DNA from: a virus
Lineage: Duplodnaviria > Caudoviricetes
Virus record (IMG/VR): IMGVR_UViG_3300049436_000058
Location: 1 to 31,651 of that record
DNA length: 31,651 nucleotides
Reading direction: 5' to 3' (one strand)
The notes beneath the pieces are model-generated. The model saw only the letters and a program-made list of their open reading frames with translations, was not told the DNA's origin and did no database searches. The position numbers and the translations under genes are program-made. Positions 2,346 to 31,191 of the stretch are shown here, in pieces. Position 1 is the stretch's first letter; every line of letters begins with the position of its first letter.

Positions 2346-3587
2346 GTGTTCAACTGGTTGCCCTGGCGCAAGAAGGATGTCTCGTACAGTGACGACAGCC
2401 TGCCGGAAGTCCTGAAATCCATCTTCGGCGGCGGTGCGATCTCCAAGTCCGGCGCCTCGGTCAACTGGAACACCGCGCTGCAGGTCTCGACCGTGCTTGC
2501 CTGCGCGCGTGTTATCGCCGAAGGCATCGCCCAGGTGCCGCTGAAGGTGTTTCGCGAGACGGGGCGCAATCGGTTGCCGGCTCGCGACCACGCGCTCTAC
2601 CAGGTGCTGCACCGCCGCCCGAATTCGTGGATGACCAGCTTCGAGCTGCGCGAGACGATGGGCCTGCACGTCGTGCTGGCCGGCAATGCCTTCGCCTTCA
2701 TCAACCGTGTCGGGCGGGAAGGGCGGGTCGCCGAGCTCATCCCGCTTGAGCCCGGCAACGTCACGCCGGTGCGGGCGCCGGACTTTTCCGTCAGCTACAA
2801 GGTGCGCGGCAAGAATGGTGAGGTGCGGGAATTTCCTGCCGAGGCGATCTGGCACTGGAAGGGCCCGTCCTGGACGGGCGCCGGCGGCCTGGATGCCGTC
2901 AGGCTCGCCCGTGAAGCCATCGGCCTCGCTCTGTCGACGGAAGAACATCATGCCAAGCTGCACGCGAACGGCGCGCGCGCCGGCGGCGTGCTTTCCGTCG
3001 AGGGCACGCTGAGCGAGCCGCAGTACAAGCAGCTCAAGGAGTTCGTCGAGCGGAACCACCAGGGCGCCACGAACGCATGGCGCACGATGATCCTCGATCG
3101 CAACGCGAAGTGGCTGCAGACAGCCCTGAACGGCGTGGACAGCCAGCACCTTGAGACGCGGCGTTACCAGGTCGAGGAGATCTGCCGCTTTTTCCGGGTC
3201 ATGCCGATCATGGTCGGCTACTCCGACAAGGCCAGTACCTACGCCAGCGCCGAGCAGATGTTCCTGGCGCATGTCGTGCACACGCTGTCGCCGTGGTACG
3301 AGCGCATCGAGCAGTCCATCGACTGCTTCCTGCTGAGCGAGATCGACATCAAGGCAGGTTACTACGCCAAGTTCGTCGTCGCCGGCCTGTTGCGCGGCGC
3401 GCTGAAGGACACGGCCGAGTATCTGAGCAAGCTCACCACCAACGGCATCCTCACGCGCAACGAGGCGCGCGAGAAGCTGGAATACAACCCGCTCGACGGC
3501 CTGGACGAGCCGCTTACCCCGGCCAACATGACCGTCGGCGCCGAACCGCCGGACCCCGAGAAGGAAGGAGCCCTCAATGGAGCGTAA
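2346..3587 (+). CDS. Portal protein, HK97 family
   Basis: ALQVSTVLACARVIAEGIAQVPL, RPNSWMTSFE, EICRFFRV and GILTRNEARE motifs; follows terL. Confidence 0.95.
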   Translation: MFNWLPWRKKDVSYSDDSLPEVLKSIFGGGAISKSGASVNWNTALQVSTVLACARVIAEGIAQVPLKVFRETGRNRLPARDHALYQVLHRRPNSWMTSFELRETMGLHVVLAGNAFAFINRVGREGRVAELIPLEPGNVTPVRAPDFSVSYKVRGKNGEVREFPAEAIWHWKGPSWTGAGGLDAVRLAREAIGLALSTEEHHAKLHANGARAGGVLSVEGTLSEPQYKQLKEFVERNHQGATNAWRTMILDRNAKWLQTALNGVDSQHLETRRYQVEEICRFFRVMPIMVGYSDKASTYASAEQMFLAHVVHTLSPWYERIEQSIDCFLLSEIDIKAGYYAKFVVAGLLRGALKDTAEYLSKLTTNGILTRNEAREKLEYNPLDGLDEPLTPANMTVGAEPPDPEKEGALNGA

Positions 3588-4230
3588 CCATTACGATTGC
3601 CCGTTCGAAGTCAAATCCGTCAAGGAAGACGGCACCTTCGCCGGCTACGGCAGCGTGTTCGGAAACATCGACTCCTACCAGGAGATCGTCCTGCCCGGCG
3701 CCTTTTCCGAGTCTCTCGCCGCGCAGCAGTCCCTCGGGCGGCTGCCGGCCATGCTCTGGCAGCACCGCTCCGGCGAGCCCATCGGCATCTACACCGTCAT
3801 GCGCGAAGATGCCGTCGGCCTGCACGTCGAAGGCAAGCTCGCGCTCAAGACCGGGCGCGGCCAGGAAGCGCACGAGCTGCTCAAAATGGGCGCGCTCTCC
3901 GGCCTCTCCATCGGCTTCGTCACGCGCGAGGACATCTACGACAAGGTCACCGGCATCCGCACCCTGAAGAAGGTCGACCTGTGGGAGGTCTCCCTGGTCA
4001 CCTTCCCGGCCAACGATGCCGCCCGCGTTTCGGCGGTGAAGACCATCGAATCCATTTCCAGCCTGAGCGATGCCGAGCGCTACCTGCGCGATGCCGGCGG
4101 TTTCTCGCGCGCCCAGGCCACGGCTCTGCTGAGCCGTCTCAAGTCCCTCTCGGGTCAGGGCGAGCCTGACGCGGCGCTGGGCGAACTGAAGCAATCCCTG
4201 CTCACCCTGCAGCGGCGCATCGCCGCCTGA
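3577..4230 (+). CDS. Prohead maturation protease, HK97 family
   Basis: FAGYGSVF, MLWQH, GLSIGF and LWEVSLVTFPAN motifs. Confidence 0.95.
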   Translation: MERNHYDCPFEVKSVKEDGTFAGYGSVFGNIDSYQEIVLPGAFSESLAAQQSLGRLPAMLWQHRSGEPIGIYTVMREDAVGLHVEGKLALKTGRGQEAHELLKMGALSGLSIGFVTREDIYDKVTGIRTLKKVDLWEVSLVTFPANDAARVSAVKTIESISSLSDAERYLRDAGGFSRAQATALLSRLKSLSGQGEPDAALGELKQSLLTLQRRIAA

Positions 4231-8138: not shown

Positions 8139-8708
8139 ATGAGCCTGAAACTCATCACGCCGCCCGCCGCCGAGCCGGTCACGCTGATCGAGGCCAAAGC
8201 GCACCTGCGCGTCAGCATCAGCGACGACGACACCCTGATCGGCATGCTGATCAAGGCCGCGCGCGAGGCCTGCGAGCACGAACTCGGCCGCGCCCTGATC
8301 ACGCAGACCTGGGAGTTGGCGCTCGATGTTTTCCCGGAAGGGTTCCGCCTCCCGTATCCGTCGGTGCAGAGTGTGGCGAGCGTCAAGTATGTCGACCCCG
8401 ACGGCACCCTGCAGACCCTGGCCGACACCGAATACGCGCTGGATAACCACAGCGAGCCGGCTTACCTGGTGCCGGCTTATGGCAAGGCCTGGCCGGCCAC
8501 CCGCGCCGAGCCGAACGCCGTGCGCGTGCAATACCTCGCCGGATTCGGCGACGCCGGCACCGACGTGCCGGAAGTCCTTCGCCAGTGGATCCTGCTGCAG
8601 GCGGCGCACTGGTACGGCAGCCGCGAAGCGGCCAGCGCGACGCGGCTCGAAAAGACGCCCTACGTCGACAGCTTGCTCGACCGCTACCGGGTGTACTTGT
8701 TCGCATGA
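8139..8708 (+). CDS. Head-tail connector (gp6-like adaptor)
   Basis: PPAAEPVTLIEAKAHLRV, GRALITQTW, VPEVLRQWILL...WY..RE motifs. Confidence 0.9.
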   Translation: MSLKLITPPAAEPVTLIEAKAHLRVSISDDDTLIGMLIKAAREACEHELGRALITQTWELALDVFPEGFRLPYPSVQSVASVKYVDPDGTLQTLADTEYALDNHSEPAYLVPAYGKAWPATRAEPNAVRVQYLAGFGDAGTDVPEVLRQWILLQAAHWYGSREAASATRLEKTPYVDSLLDRYRVYLFA

Positions 8709-22633: not shown

Positions 22634-22662
22634 TTGACAAGTTCGCAAACGCGAACTAAGAT
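22634..22662 (+). promoter_or_regulatory. Strong sigma70 promoter with a palindromic operator in the spacer
   Basis: TTGACA (22634-39), 17 nt, TAAGAT (22657-62); inverted repeat AGTTCGC-AAAC-GCGAACT at 22640-22657. Confidence 0.88.
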
Positions 22663-22713
22663 TCAAACCATGGAGGGCGGCATTCGGCAGCCCCCACTCT
22701 CAGGAGAGTCAAG

Positions 22714-22986
22714 ATGAAATTCCAAAAGTGGCAACACCCCAAGACCGATGAAGTGCGCATCTACGTGAATGGTGCGGCTGGCTTCGGCGTCAAGGTCTAC
22801 GTGGTCGACGGCGGTGTGACCGGACACTACCCGGCCGACTTCCCGGAAGTGGTGGTGCGCGCCGACCACATGATCGGCCAGTCGCAGGTCGACGCGATCA
22901 TGAATGATGTTGAACAGCATGTGTGCGAGGCCCTGAGCCTCGATCGCGGCATGAAGTATTCCGACATCGTTAAACTCGCGCCATGA
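22714..22986 (+). CDS. Candidate anti-CRISPR / anti-defence protein, 90 aa
   Basis: Small ORF with AGGAG RBS between a strong operator-bearing promoter and an aca2-like gene (ATGA overlap). Function is by association only. Confidence 0.6.
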   Translation: MKFQKWQHPKTDEVRIYVNGAAGFGVKVYVVDGGVTGHYPADFPEVVVRADHMIGQSQVDAIMNDVEQHVCEALSLDRGMKYSDIVKLAP

Positions 22987-23456
22987 CCCCTTCCAGCCTG
23001 CAGGCGCTGCGGCGCCTGCTCTTCTTCTCCGTCGAGGAGGCCGCGCTGCTGGTGGCGGCGTCCGCCGATCGCCCGCAGGGCGTCTCGCCGCGGTCCTGGC
23101 AGTACTGGGAGCGCGGCGAGCGGCCGGTGCCGACCGACGTGGCCGAGACGATCCGCCATCTGTGCGCCTGGCGCGCGCAGGCCATCGCCACGGCCGATGC
23201 CGCCGTGGCCTCAATGCAGGCCCGCCACAGCGCTCCGGCCGATGTCGTGCTGATCTGGTATCAGACGCTCGACGATTGGGCTTCCATGGCCGGACGTGAG
23301 CCGCTGCAATGGCGGCCGCAGTGTTCGGTAGTGGCGGAGCTGGCCGCGCGACACGGCGCGCGCCTGGTGACGTTCGACGGGCCAGGCTATGCCGCCTGGC
23401 TCGGCCGGCGGCAGGATTCGGAGACGATGCGGTCTGAGTGGGCGGCGAGTCTTTAA
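22983..23456 (+). CDS. aca2: Aca2/YdiL (DUF1870) family HTH regulator
   Basis: LQALRRLL..SVEEAA...VSPRSWQYWERGERPVP.DV and Y.TLDDW....WR...SV match my recollection of the Aca2 pattern. Confidence 0.85.
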   Translation: MTPSSLQALRRLLFFSVEEAALLVAASADRPQGVSPRSWQYWERGERPVPTDVAETIRHLCAWRAQAIATADAAVASMQARHSAPADVVLIWYQTLDDWASMAGREPLQWRPQCSVVAELAARHGARLVTFDGPGYAAWLGRRQDSETMRSEWAASL

Positions 23457-24994
23457 GCCGCTTTTTTATTCCTCGGCGCCTGAAACGGCACCGAGCCATG
23501 CAGAATGGGGTTATCACCAGTTCCCCGTGGGGACGCCACCTTAACCCCACTTGCGCCGATCCGGTAGCGGATCGATCCGGCGCGGGTGGCGGGATCCAGC
23601 ACGATCTTCTCGATGAAGCCGCCGAGGAAGTCCTTCAGGGCGGCGCGATCGAGCTCGGCCATGTCTTCGGCCAGGGCGCCGAGCATTCGGCGCACGTCGC
23701 TCTCTTTCACGGCTGCCAGCGTCTTGGCGCGCCGCGTCTCTTCTTCCAGCCTGGCCAGCCGCTGGCTGGTCGTCTCGCGTTCCTTCTCCAGTTCATCCAG
23801 TCGCCGCAGCAGCGGGCCGGGCATTTCAGCGGCTTCGAGGAGTGCAGTCAGCTTGCGGATCCGCGTGTCGGTGTCGCGCAGCTCTGCCTGCAGGGTCTGC
23901 AGCTCGGCGCCGTCGCCCGGCTGTTGCGCCGCTCTGGCGGTTTCGGTCATGGCCTTGACGATGGCGTCGCTGCGGATGTCGATCGCCATCTGCTGCAGGA
24001 CGGCCTCCTCGAGCATGGCCGAACGGATGTTCGCGCTGCCGGCGCGATAGTTGCCGGCATTGCCGTGCCAGGCTCCCCCGTCGGGCGTCAGAACCTTGCC
24101 GGCGAGGAGATAGTCCGATGCGCGGACACGGGTCGCCCGGGCGGCTTTGTTTCCCTCCAGGCGCGCCAGGATGGCCTCGGCGGCCGCGTCGGCGATGAGG
24201 GCGGCGTGTGTATCGCGCTGGATGATCCATTCGGTCCTGGGCCGCCGGCGGCCGCCGGCGCCTCCTTCTTCCTTGCCACGGTGCATGTTCCAGACGGTGT
24301 GTCCGGCGTAGGTGAGGGCGGACCATTCCAGGTGCGCCAGACTGCTGGGGGCGAGATCGATGCCGAGCGTCTGGGCGAGCTGGCGGCCGTTCTTGCCGGC
24401 GGCGCGGCCGTTGAGCCAGGCGGCGATCTTCTCGCCGTTGGCGTCCGGCTCGAGCCGGCTCTTCAGGACCGGCTGGCCGTCGCGCACGACGCCGGTGTCG
24501 ATCGGCACCAGGCGGTAGCCGTAGGGCGCGCGGCCGCCGGCGCGGTAGCCGTTGCGGACGTTCTCGGCCATGCCGGCGAGGCCCTTCTCGCGGCTCATGA
24601 GGCTGTGCACTTCGTCCATCGCCTGCAGCACGCTGTCGAGGATCACCTGGGAGATCGGGTCGACCTCGGGCACCTTGGCGAAGACGATGTCGACGCCGAG
24701 CTTCTTGCATTCGTGGCGGAAGGCCTCGGCGATGTAGCGGCGGCGGCCGATGCGGCTGGTGTCGTAGATGAGGATGGCGGACCAGGCGCGGCCGCGCACC
24801 TTCATGTCGCGCAGCAGCTGCTGGAAGCCGGCCCGGTCGGTGTCCTTGCCGGACTCGACGGCGTCGGTGTACTCAGCGGTGACGATCAGGTCGCGGGCCC
24901 TGGCCAGCGCCAGCAGCTCGTGACGTTGCGCCTGTATCGAGATCGCGCTGCGGTCCTTCGACGACCGACAGTAGAGGGCGGCTTGTCTTGGCAT
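23453..24994 (-). CDS. Large serine recombinase (phage integrase)
   Basis: Catalytic YCRSS, D...SG....R.GFQQLL, DTSRIGR, GGRAPYGY motifs and a C-terminal coiled coil; 513 aa. Confidence 0.95.
   Translation of the reverse strand: MPRQAALYCRSSKDRSAISIQAQRHELLALARARDLIVTAEYTDAVESGKDTDRAGFQQLLRDMKVRGRAWSAILIYDTSRIGRRRYIAEAFRHECKKLGVDIVFAKVPEVDPISQVILDSVLQAMDEVHSLMSREKGLAGMAENVRNGYRAGGRAPYGYRLVPIDTGVVRDGQPVLKSRLEPDANGEKIAAWLNGRAAGKNGRQLAQTLGIDLAPSSLAHLEWSALTYAGHTVWNMHRGKEEGGAGGRRRPRTEWIIQRDTHAALIADAAAEAILARLEGNKAARATRVRASDYLLAGKVLTPDGGAWHGNAGNYRAGSANIRSAMLEEAVLQQMAIDIRSDAIVKAMTETARAAQQPGDGAELQTLQAELRDTDTRIRKLTALLEAAEMPGPLLRRLDELEKERETTSQRLARLEEETRRAKTLAAVKESDVRRMLGALAEDMAELDRAALKDFLGGFIEKIVLDPATRAGSIRYRIGASGVKVASPRGTGDNPILHGSVPFQAPRNKKAA
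23506..23549. other. attP site with a core matching a tRNA-Glu 3' end
   Basis: Dyad centred on GT (23527-28): TCCCC/GGGGA inner arms and TGGGGTTA/TAACCCCA outer arms at symmetric positions. TCCCCGTGGGGACGCCA (23522-38) resembles the 3' end of proteobacterial tRNA-Glu. Confidence 0.8.
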
Positions 24995-25085
24995 GGAAGT
25001 CCAGGATCAGCGCCACGGCCGCGTCGGCGACCAGGCGTGCGTCCGGTTGGTTTTCGGCGGTGATTGTGAGCGCGGGGCGAGGCAT
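24873..25085 (-). CDS. Small hypothetical protein overlapping the integrase start
   Basis: 70 aa; ATG 3 nt after the upstream stop. Confidence 0.5.
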   Translation of the reverse strand: MPRPALTITAENQPDARLVADAAVALILDFHAKTSRPLLSVVEGPQRDLDTGATSRAAGAGQGPRPDRHR

Positions 25086-25088
25086 GGG

Positions 25089-25394
25089 TCAAGCGGAGGG
25101 TTCGTAGTCTTCCGTTTCCTGCTCGAGGAACGATCGCACGCCTGACCATTGGCCGAGCTGCTCTTTGGTCATCACATCGACTCCGCGCTGAATGACATCC
25201 TTGGCGACGGCGACCTGCGTCTTGAGACGGGCGTTCTCCTCCTTTGTTTTTGCCAGGAAGGCGCTCGGGAATAACCCTTCGGCTATGGATTGGAAAACTT
25301 TATCCATAGCGCGCTCCATGCCGGCGCGCGCTCCATCTTCAACGCGACGCATCAGTTGCCGACGTTTTCTGTAGAAGGATTTGGCGCGCTTCAT
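25089..25394 (-). CDS. Hypothetical protein
   Basis: 101 aa from the ATGA overlap at 25394; more AT-rich than its neighbours. Confidence 0.65.
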   Translation of the reverse strand: MKRAKSFYRKRRQLMRRVEDGARAGMERAMDKVFQSIAEGLFPSAFLAKTKEENARLKTQVAVAKDVIQRGVDVMTKEQLGQWSGVRSFLEQETEDYEPSA

Positions 25395-29639: not shown

Positions 29640-30229
29640 GCGTGGCTCCAGAGGGTTTTGGTGACGTCGAGGAATTTCGAGAGGCCGACGACCTCGGCCT
29701 GAGTGAGCTTGACCGAGACCTCGCCGACGGCGATGCCCAGCGCGCCGGAGTTCTCGATGGCGAAGCGGGCAGTGCTGTCGTCGATGGGCGTGATGGATTC
29801 ACCGGCCATCGCTTCCTGGGCAATCATCTGGCGACCCAGCGCATGGGCCCCCTGCTGCGATGTGAGTCTCGGTTTCTCGGCCGGCGGCTTCGGCCAGGGC
29901 TTGGGCGCCTTGACCTTGCCACCGGATGGGCCATAAACGAAGCGCACGCCGCGGCCGGAGCCGGGCGGGGCGTCGTGGCGCGCGATCGTGCCGGCGTCGG
30001 TGAGGGCGCGCAGGTGTGGGAAAAGTTCGGCCGCGTCGACGCCGAGCGCCAGGGCGATGACGCCGGGCGGCTGCGGCTCGGCGAGCTTGTTGATGTGTGC
30101 GGCGGCGGTGTCGGCGATGCCGCCGGATTCCTTCCTTTTGGGCATGGTGTCGGGTTCCTCCGGGTGGGTGGGTTCGTTGGGTGCGGTGTGCTCGAGCTGC
30201 GAGACGAGCTGGGCGAAGATGTCGGTCAT
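29636..30229 (-). CDS. Phage hypothetical protein with a possible wHTH
   Basis: 197 aa starting at the ATGA overlap with the intI stop; ends in an ATGA overlap with parB. Confidence 0.7.
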
Positions 30230-31191
30230 GCGGCAAGCCTGTCGAGCGGACTGGCGTGGCCGGCCGCGCCCTTCACAGCCACGTGGGTGTAGATCATGGT
30301 GGTGCTCAGGTCGGCGTGGCCGAGCAGCTGCTGGATGGTACGGATGTCGGTGCCGCTCTCCAATAGATGCGTAGCGAAGCTGTGGCGCAGGGTGTGCGCG
30401 CCGACGGGCTTGACGATCTTGGCCAGGGCGCGCGACGACTTGATGGCCTTCGACACCGCCGAGTCGTGGATGTGGTGGCGGCGGATCTCGCCGGTGCGCG
30501 GATCCGGCCCGGGCTTCGAGGCGGGGAAAACGAACTGCCAGCCGAACTGCTTGGCCGCGCCGGGATATTTGCGGCCGAGCGCGCCGGGCATGTAGGCGTC
30601 GCCCAGGCCGGCAGCGAGATCGCGCACGTGGGTGCGGCGCACCGTCTCTATGTGGTGCTTGAGCGGCTCGGCGACGGCGGCCGGCAGCATGACGGCGCGG
30701 TCCTTGTCGCCCTTGCCCTCGCGCACGGTGATGATGCGCCGCGCGAAGTCGATGTCCTTGATGCGCACCGAGAGGCACTCCTCCAGGCGCAGGCCGGCGC
30801 CGTAGAGCAGCGCGCCGATTAGCCAGTGCATGCCGTGCAGGTGGTCGAGCAAGCGGGCGACCTCGTCTGTGGAGAGCACCACCGGCAGGCGCTTCGGCTG
30901 CCGGGCGGGATGGAAGCCGGAGAAGTCGCCGACGTCCTCGCGCAGGACGTGCTTGTAGAGGAAGACGATGGCGTTGAGCGCCTGGTTCTGCGTCGAGGCC
31001 GACACCTCGCGCTCGCGTGCCAGGTGGGTGAGGAAGGCGCGCACCTTGTCCTCATGACCGCCATCGGCGTGGTCCCGGCACCAGAAGGCGAAGCGCTTGA
31101 TCCAATGCAGGTACGCCTGTTCCGTCCGGTAGCTCATGTGCCGGAAGCGGAGGACGTTGCGCGCGGTTTCGAGTGCCAGGTCGAGCTTCAT
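30226..31191 (-). CDS. intI: Integron integrase
   Basis: [39 protein letters not shown], integron-specific insertion ALGRKYP...WQFVFP...[28 protein letters not shown]. Catalytic R-K-H-R-H-Y residues are all present. Confidence 0.96.

Follow-up and report, generated by a model that had tools for sequence, protein, structure and literature searches.

The window analysed here is the complete 31,651-bp virus record IMGVR_UViG_3300049436_000058, a tailed phage (Caudoviricetes) in which the terminase, portal, capsid, tail and lysis genes lie on the + strand and the early genes on the − strand. Between these two groups lies the gene of a large serine integrase (23453..24994, − strand), whose product, P0001, has 513 amino acids (aa). 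The gene spans the phage attachment site (attP), and integration restores a host tRNA-Glu gene and swaps residues 492–513 of the integrase for six others; this layout is real, well supported and widespread. Since the integrase gene lies between the gene groups, the window represents the free, attP-bearing form of the phage. No close relative was found among annotated phages, where nine records matched with a coverage of at most 28%. The closest integrated relatives (L014–L016 and L019, 73–80% identity) come from records labelled Sulfuritalea, Rhodocyclaceae and Betaproteobacteria, so the host of the phage is likely a member of the same group.

P0001 matches the Pfam family Resolvase (5e-19) and PHROG 95, integrase (2.5e-48), and its top Foldseek matches are the integrases of SPbeta, phiC31 and Bxb1 (E 2e-14 for SPbeta Int). 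The N-terminal resolvase domain (PF00239) covers residues 5–149, and R10, S11 and S12 of the catalytic region are nearly invariant among 84 homologues. An hhalign comparison of the P0001 profile with the A118 integrase gave 91.7% over 330 columns, and the AlphaFold2 model of P0001 places helices at residues 362–427, the coiled coil region. Judged from these alignments and from the model, the protein has the architecture of a large serine integrase, with a catalytic resolvase domain, a pair of domains that bind DNA (DBD1 and DBD2) and a coiled coil. The recombinase domain PF07508 gave no match in P0001 but is present in some homologues; a PDB sequence search with the integrase returned matches in catalytic domains only, and the C-terminal profile of the integrase did not align significantly with SprA or A118 (E 0.4 for A118). 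No cysteine is found at the P0001 positions aligned to the zinc-ribbon cysteines of A118, and DBD2 is degenerate and likely zinc-free.

The attP site (23506..23549) consists of two 21-bp arms around the core dinucleotide GT at 23527-23528 and lies inside integrase codons 483–497. The codons for V486–G491 occupy 23539-23522, with the GT falling within P489/R490, and the protein ends in ...VASPRGTGDNP...RNKKAA. A first-pass annotation of the sequence had placed an attP centred on GT within the VASPRG codons of the integrase gene, with this same protein end, and the placement was borne out. The outer 8-bp arms (23506-23513 and 23542-23549) are exact inverted repeats, and the inner part has the form C4-GT-G4. 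The symmetry is modest, with 13 of 22 mirrored positions, a score that 103 of 31,591 positions in the window reach or exceed; by itself it is not decisive, and it is the comparative evidence that settles the site. A 17-bp block (23522..23538, + strand) is identical to the 3′ end of the host tRNA-Glu including CCA, as seen in a junction in run X16, in contig breaks in run X7 and at left junctions (attL) of relatives. The coding sequence of the free-form tail, residues 492–513 plus the stop (23453..23521, − strand), is moved to the right junction (attR) upon integration.

Public sequencing runs were compared with the window, eight of 24 in all (X1, X2, X4, X7, X8, X9, X10 and X16). A contig of run X16, a run not flagged as a possible source of the window, matches 23522-23750, with three letters different, and joins the integrase side to the tRNA T-arm; the 12 letters before 23522 equal the T-arm side of tRNA-Glu at the attL of L019. 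This contig is the attL junction of a near-identical phage, that is, this phage's own attL. In run X7, which was flagged as a possible source, one contig ends at 23538 and another begins at 23522, the two ends of the shared 17-bp block; branching of the assembly graph at either block end, with both states present, would give this picture. No junction was seen in runs X1, X2, X4, X8, X9 and X10; attP is unbroken in X1 and X2, from which the window may derive, and the RNA run X9 covers attP with contigs, which cannot show transcription. Among relatives, 61 of 80 genome loci have a tRNA-Glu, called by ARAGORN, that overlaps the 3′ end of the integrase gene. The identity block between attL and attR is 12–19 nt long in 23 relatives, and the shortest, of 12 nt, ends at the core; as the block always includes at least the length of the tRNA end and two further bases, it fits crossover at the central dinucleotide. 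The first-pass proposal of tRNA-Glu as the target, with a crossover that restores the tRNA, is thereby upheld by the attL loci and by the X16 junction of this phage itself.

The window also holds a second integrase gene (30226-31191, − strand), of the tyrosine family, with an integron-like SAM_4 domain and an Ala-Ala end. As a candidate for the acting enzyme it was rejected: tblastn found no match to it in six integrated elements fetched whole, and it is the serine integrase gene, not the tyrosine integrase gene, that adjoins tRNA-Glu in the 61 genome loci. Two of the six elements (those of L028 and L023) hold homologues of the window terminase and portal between attL and attR; others are islands of 5–9 kb (L020, L021, L040).

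After integration, the gene finishes with 41 nt of antisense tRNA-Glu, and its TGA stop is supplied by the anticodon loop. Because this stop is the loop read in antisense, the length of the new end is fixed at six residues after Gly491. The first-pass annotation had anticipated a C-terminus of roughly VASPRGFEPR, and P0021, P0008 and L019 do end in ...ASPRGFEPR plus three residues. The comparison of integrated relatives that it had suggested gave antisense tRNA-Glu ends throughout: among 111 non-redundant integrated-form ends, 107 end in Pro (49 in Pro-Pro) and none in Ala-Ala. For these counts, 283 rows were classified by an att motif anchor, which was found in 265, the 18 without it being left out; duplicates were removed before C-termini were counted, and L084 was assigned to the integrated form by hand.

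Both forms are common among relatives. The best 120 homologues comprise 78 free, 40 integrated and two unplaced forms, and the 30 closest comprise 19 free forms, 16 of them ending in Ala-Ala, and 11 integrated ones. Genome loci are mostly integrated (63 of 80, with eight free, five unplaced and four partial), and 80 viral loci gave 42 free, 22 integrated, 11 unplaced and five partial. On a FastTree tree of 226 rows, the two states require 59 changes, compared with 74.8 ± 3.9 after shuffling; they interleave, so that free and integrated forms are not two subfamilies. At attR, the orphan tail is readable in place at 23 of 44 candidate sites, 15 of them on the same contig as attL, and 22 of these 23 tails are at most 32 aa long, while 20 keep Pro at +6, as free forms do. 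The other 21 candidates were dropped for an arm match below 7/13, an identity block outside 12–29 nt or no usable match, and some of them look real (L199 ends in Ala-Ala, L201 in Arg-Ala). The orphan tail of L216 (G001:C31 attR) keeps ...Lys-Ala-Ala but has lost the stop and extends to 62 aa; it is possibly a decayed degron in a resident element.

Several variants of the layout were observed. In one subgroup (L111, L113, L120, L123 and L125), attP is inverted relative to the integrase gene and the tRNA end is read in sense, the site still being spanned; L125 ends in Lys-Val-Ala. Another subgroup (L149, L155, L172 and L036) reads the att core in a different frame; L155 and L172 nevertheless keep a terminal Ala-Ala, and in L036, which is integrated, the tRNA-coded end is longer. 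In L214, L217, L222, L223 and L226, the target tRNA-Glu(TTC) closes a tRNA-Ala(GGC)-tRNA-Glu(TTC) run, so that host tRNA transcription would meet the integrated integrase gene head-on. Just 3′ of the restored tRNA, and inside the integrase coding region, lies a long hairpin without a U-tract (23545-23592, + strand); its single-sequence z is below −2 in 47 of 69 attL loci (1/69 and 7/69 in controls), while RNAalifold found no consensus among 35 sequences.

The tail of the free form ends in basic residues followed by a terminal Ala-Ala (23456..23473, − strand), an end resembling a ClpX-type degron. In 121 non-redundant free forms, 61 end in Ala-Ala and 75 in Ala-Ala, Val-Ala or Ile-Ala; Lys or Arg occurs at −6 to −3 in 72 of these 75, and at least two such residues in 57. 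Ala-Ala is about 11-fold above background, which was 20/441 and 40/903 in long neighbouring open reading frames (ORFs; mechanical calls, some spurious) and 1/83 in off-frame readings. In 24 loci with DNA, it is encoded by nine codon pairs and followed by all three stop codons, and this variety places the selection on Ala-Ala at the protein level. The dipeptide is kept in tails of 18–32 aa, spread over the tree (23 of 47 clusters at 60% identity), and persists in L155 and L172 despite their other reading frame across the att core. It has been reported that ClpXP tags in E. coli depend critically on a terminal Ala-Ala, which does not suffice on its own (10.1101/2024.01.29.576913), that the C-terminal ClpX motifs known are similar to ssrA or to the basic end of MuA (PMC8138137), and that BPs-type integrases carry ssrA-like tags (PMC9262239), as far as the available text of these sources goes. 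The sequences thus give strong support for the Ala-Ala end being a ClpX-type degron, and this assignment is likely.

In the favoured explanation, which is rather probable and whose steps we infer, the tail is a ClpX-type tag that keeps the free-phage enzyme short-lived, and the prophage enzyme, lacking the tag, lives longer and serves excision. The free-form tail would make the integrase a ClpXP substrate and would limit how long or how often an infecting or newly excised phage integrates; a limit of this kind, set by ClpXP on tagged integrases, has been described for mycobacteriophage BPs (PMC9262239, in the part available). Integration into tRNA-Glu, by swapping the 22-residue tail for six tRNA-coded residues, would remove this limit in cis, and excision would restore it. 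In the prophage, the tag-less enzyme would last longer and be available for excision. The same swap is predicted to take a strand away from DBD2, and this loss may bring in control of direction as well.

Several observations weigh against this explanation. Tails at attR end in Ala-Ala in only four of 23 cases (Ala-Ala, Val-Ala or Ile-Ala in five, any Ala in 11); this rate is below that of the free forms (p=0.005) and above background (p=0.02), with the reservation that the sequences are phylogenetically related and Fisher p-values therefore overstate independence. Decay or non-phage islands may account for the low rate. One clade of 15 with Arg/Pro-rich tails has a single Ala-Ala end. P0001 itself has Asn at −5 followed by Lys-Lys, whereas the E. 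coli screen (10.1101/2024.01.29.576913, as available) showed a depletion of polar residues at this position; its end departs from the preference of that screen for a hydrophobic residue at −5 and Leu at −3 and is nearer to the basic MuA tag. Ala-Ala or Val-Ala also ends the tyrosine integrase, the prohead protease and the capsid protein, three of 15 other genes translated. In addition, termination in E. coli can stall at a C-terminal Pro, with ssrA rescue as the consequence (Hayes 2002, cited in PMC7246954, in the portion available). Since Pro is the last residue of 107 of 111 integrated forms, the prophage form may be tagged by transfer-messenger RNA (tmRNA) and gain no stability. Taken as a whole, the first-pass reading therefore holds in part: its layout stands, and its putative Ala-Ala degron has strong sequence support but is not universal, given the attR tails and the Arg/Pro-rich clade.

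The structural models suggest a further consequence of the swap, which the first-pass annotation did not mention. In the AlphaFold2 model of P0001, a disordered linker over the att arm (483–494) is followed by a predicted extra beta strand at residues 497–505 (23480..23506, − strand), with a mean predicted local distance difference test (pLDDT) of 84 for 501–510. The strand is absent from the model of the integrated form P0021, which is disordered from residue 480 on (pLDDT below 50 for 480–497), and the preceding strand is longer in the free form (472–480 vs 472–476). Hydrophobic residues are kept across free forms at positions 498 (80%) and 504 (68%), and the clade poor in Ala-Ala also keeps a hydrophobic segment past the crossover. 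The A118 integrase ends, by motif, at the equivalent of about Ile479 (the alignment is not significant), and the match to the XisF profile ends at residue 467 (profile position 463/465), which puts the profile end at about residue 469; since both end before the tail strand, the strand looks like an addition and not a lost core element.

A small conserved ORF (24873..25085, − strand; 70 aa with a conserved core of about 31 aa), likewise absent from the first-pass annotation, has its start 91 nt ahead of the integrase ATG and runs into the integrase gene. With a crude pattern it was detected in 89 of 162 loci, 83 of them in the same frame offset, and a hidden Markov model built from half of the alignment found it in 65 of 97 held-out upstream regions, which are related to the training set, and in none of 194 controls at 8 bits. 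Searches of Pfam, PHROG and NCBIfam gave no match, and the best match in the ESM Atlas (0.81) is unnamed; by eye, the pattern is a short strand, a Pro and a helix. From its sequence and position, the product is a candidate recombination directionality factor (RDF). A weak promoter-like site (9/12) at 25063-25092 (− strand) straddles the start of the small ORF and could drive the integrase alone.

These features raise the tentative, less probable alternative that the tail strand occupies the edge of the DBD2 sheet where the RDF docks, and that the small ORF product would act only on the tail-less form, so that one operon would yield an enzyme that integrates when the phage is free and a complex that excises when it is a prophage. 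It has been reported that most RDFs add a strand to the DBD2 sheet and that the RDF site of SCCmec recombinases could be blocked by additional strands at their C-terminus (Shin 2025, PMC12286644, in the available text); together with the predicted tail strand, this suggests that the tail blocks the RDF site and that integration would free it. The restriction of the strand to the free form, its absence from the A118 integrase and the XisF profile, and the conserved place and strand-Pro-helix pattern of the small ORF all agree with this. On the other side, the strand position comes from DSSP, and the models represent two different proteins (73% identical), with 67 vs 40 alignment rows and predicted template modelling scores (pTM) of 0.45 vs 0.43. 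The A118 C-terminal alignment has an E of 0.4, part of the tail conservation (Pro496, 109 of 121) can stem from the DNA motif of the att arm, and the small ORF product has no assigned function. Control of direction and the removal of a ClpX-type tag are compatible. A broader combination of the two is doubtful: a widespread proteobacterial family of serine integrases targeting tRNA-Glu that would set their direction through self-editing, in which the tail would be an RDF-blocking strand with a ClpX tag and the small protein an undescribed RDF family binding only after integration.

It is unlikely that the overlap is incidental, with attP packed in the linker after the folded domain and Ala-Ala serving ordinary proteolytic control whose loss is tolerated and not used. 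The location of the att site in the predicted disordered linker 483–494, the Ala-Ala end of the tyrosine integrase of the same phage, the weaker Ala-Ala at attR and in the Arg/Pro-rich clade, and Pro-stop ends that could cancel a gain in stability all speak for such an accident. However, the overlap is kept down to about 40% identity, through a frame change and an attP inversion (L111, L113, L123, L125), and a stop before attP would abolish it, yet none occurs in the classified sets, with 265 of 283 rows anchored at the att motif.

A weakened prophage enzyme acting as a brake on excision, as proposed for DsiB of Dehalococcoides and reported as altered activity for the Mx8 integrase of Myxococcus, is quite improbable here. 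According to the available parts of these sources, dsiB is perhaps fully functional only on the circle (McMurdie 2011, PMC3146451), Mx8 integration alters integrase specificity (review PMC6070905), and the extreme C-terminus of SPbeta SprA affects direction (Abe 2021, title and a remark on F532). Against this, the A118 integrase ends where the fold of the integrated form ends, so that the latter, which by motif alignment retains all that this working enzyme has, is probably not crippled; it is also the only integrase copy of its kind in the lysogen, and the assembly of run X7 branches at both block ends, as expected with both states present. Finally, ClpX remodels the MuA transpososome, and by analogy the tail might, instead of determining bulk half-life, bring in ClpX to remove the integrase from attL once integration is complete and so free the restored tRNA gene, a reading in keeping with the MuA-like basic residues before the terminal dipeptide (at least two Lys or Arg at −6 to −3 in 57 of 75) but very improbable.

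The explanation in which integration removes a ClpX-type tag from the integrase itself can be compared with several known systems. One with the same layout, also missing from the first-pass annotation, is DsiB (McMurdie 2011, PMC3146451, in the text available), a large serine recombinase. The 3′ end of its gene in every case overlaps attL/attP and continues in antisense into an RNA gene, which its authors suggested to be of regulatory relevance. DsiB differs in targeting tmRNA (ssrA) on non-phage islands with a second recombinase, DsiA, and the available text describes no degron, strand or RDF for it. The integrase studied here targets tRNA-Glu in elements that include tailed phages and has no DsiA-like partner: a scan of 28 window ORFs found no second serine recombinase (40 bits with the CcrB model, against a cut-off of 900). 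The Mx8 integrase (Tojo 1996 and Magrini 1999, via the available parts of PMC6070905 and PMC4383910) also has attP in int, a new 3′ end and a change of activity, and the same self-editing layout is present here in the serine family; Mx8 has been listed with the tyrosine integrases whose genes run across attP, and these sources make no degron claim. [quoted passage not shown] SPbeta SprA, phiC31, Bxb1 and A118/LI share the domain order, the fold and an att site, about 44 bp long, whose core is 2 nt; the attP of SPbeta is located between sprA and sprB, and the zinc-binding cysteines of canonical large serine integrases are missing in P0001. The layout thus works like the DsiB, Mx8 and BPs-type systems without being a member of any of them, in a large serine integrase whose zinc site is degenerate.

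One serine integrase would here combine two switches that have been described apart, the rewriting of an integrase's end by integration and the removal of a degradation tag by integration. According to the 2015 Islander report, in the part available, no targeting of tRNA genes by serine recombinases was known. No description of a serine integrase that targets tRNA-Glu and swaps a degron tail was found in a literature search that left most subscription papers outside its reach, and the main text of the Durrant preprint does not mention "tRNA". With both natural forms and a candidate RDF in hand, the role of the C-terminal DBD2 strand in direction, left open in the available text of Shin 2025, is directly testable. 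Moreover, as 63 of 80 genome loci carry the integrated form, mining bacterial genomes for engineering would clone the wrong end for integration.

Other features of the window were noted. ARAGORN called two tRNAs of 92–97 nt (3525-3616 and 8495-8591, − strand) antisense to structural genes; they are probably spurious, since Rfam finds no tRNA there. On the + strand, 22634-23456 holds a sigma-70-like promoter (10 of 12), an ORF of 90 aa that falls in no family and a protein like Aca2/YdiL; this set resembles an anti-CRISPR/aca pair and converges on the integrase gene, with overlapping stop codons.
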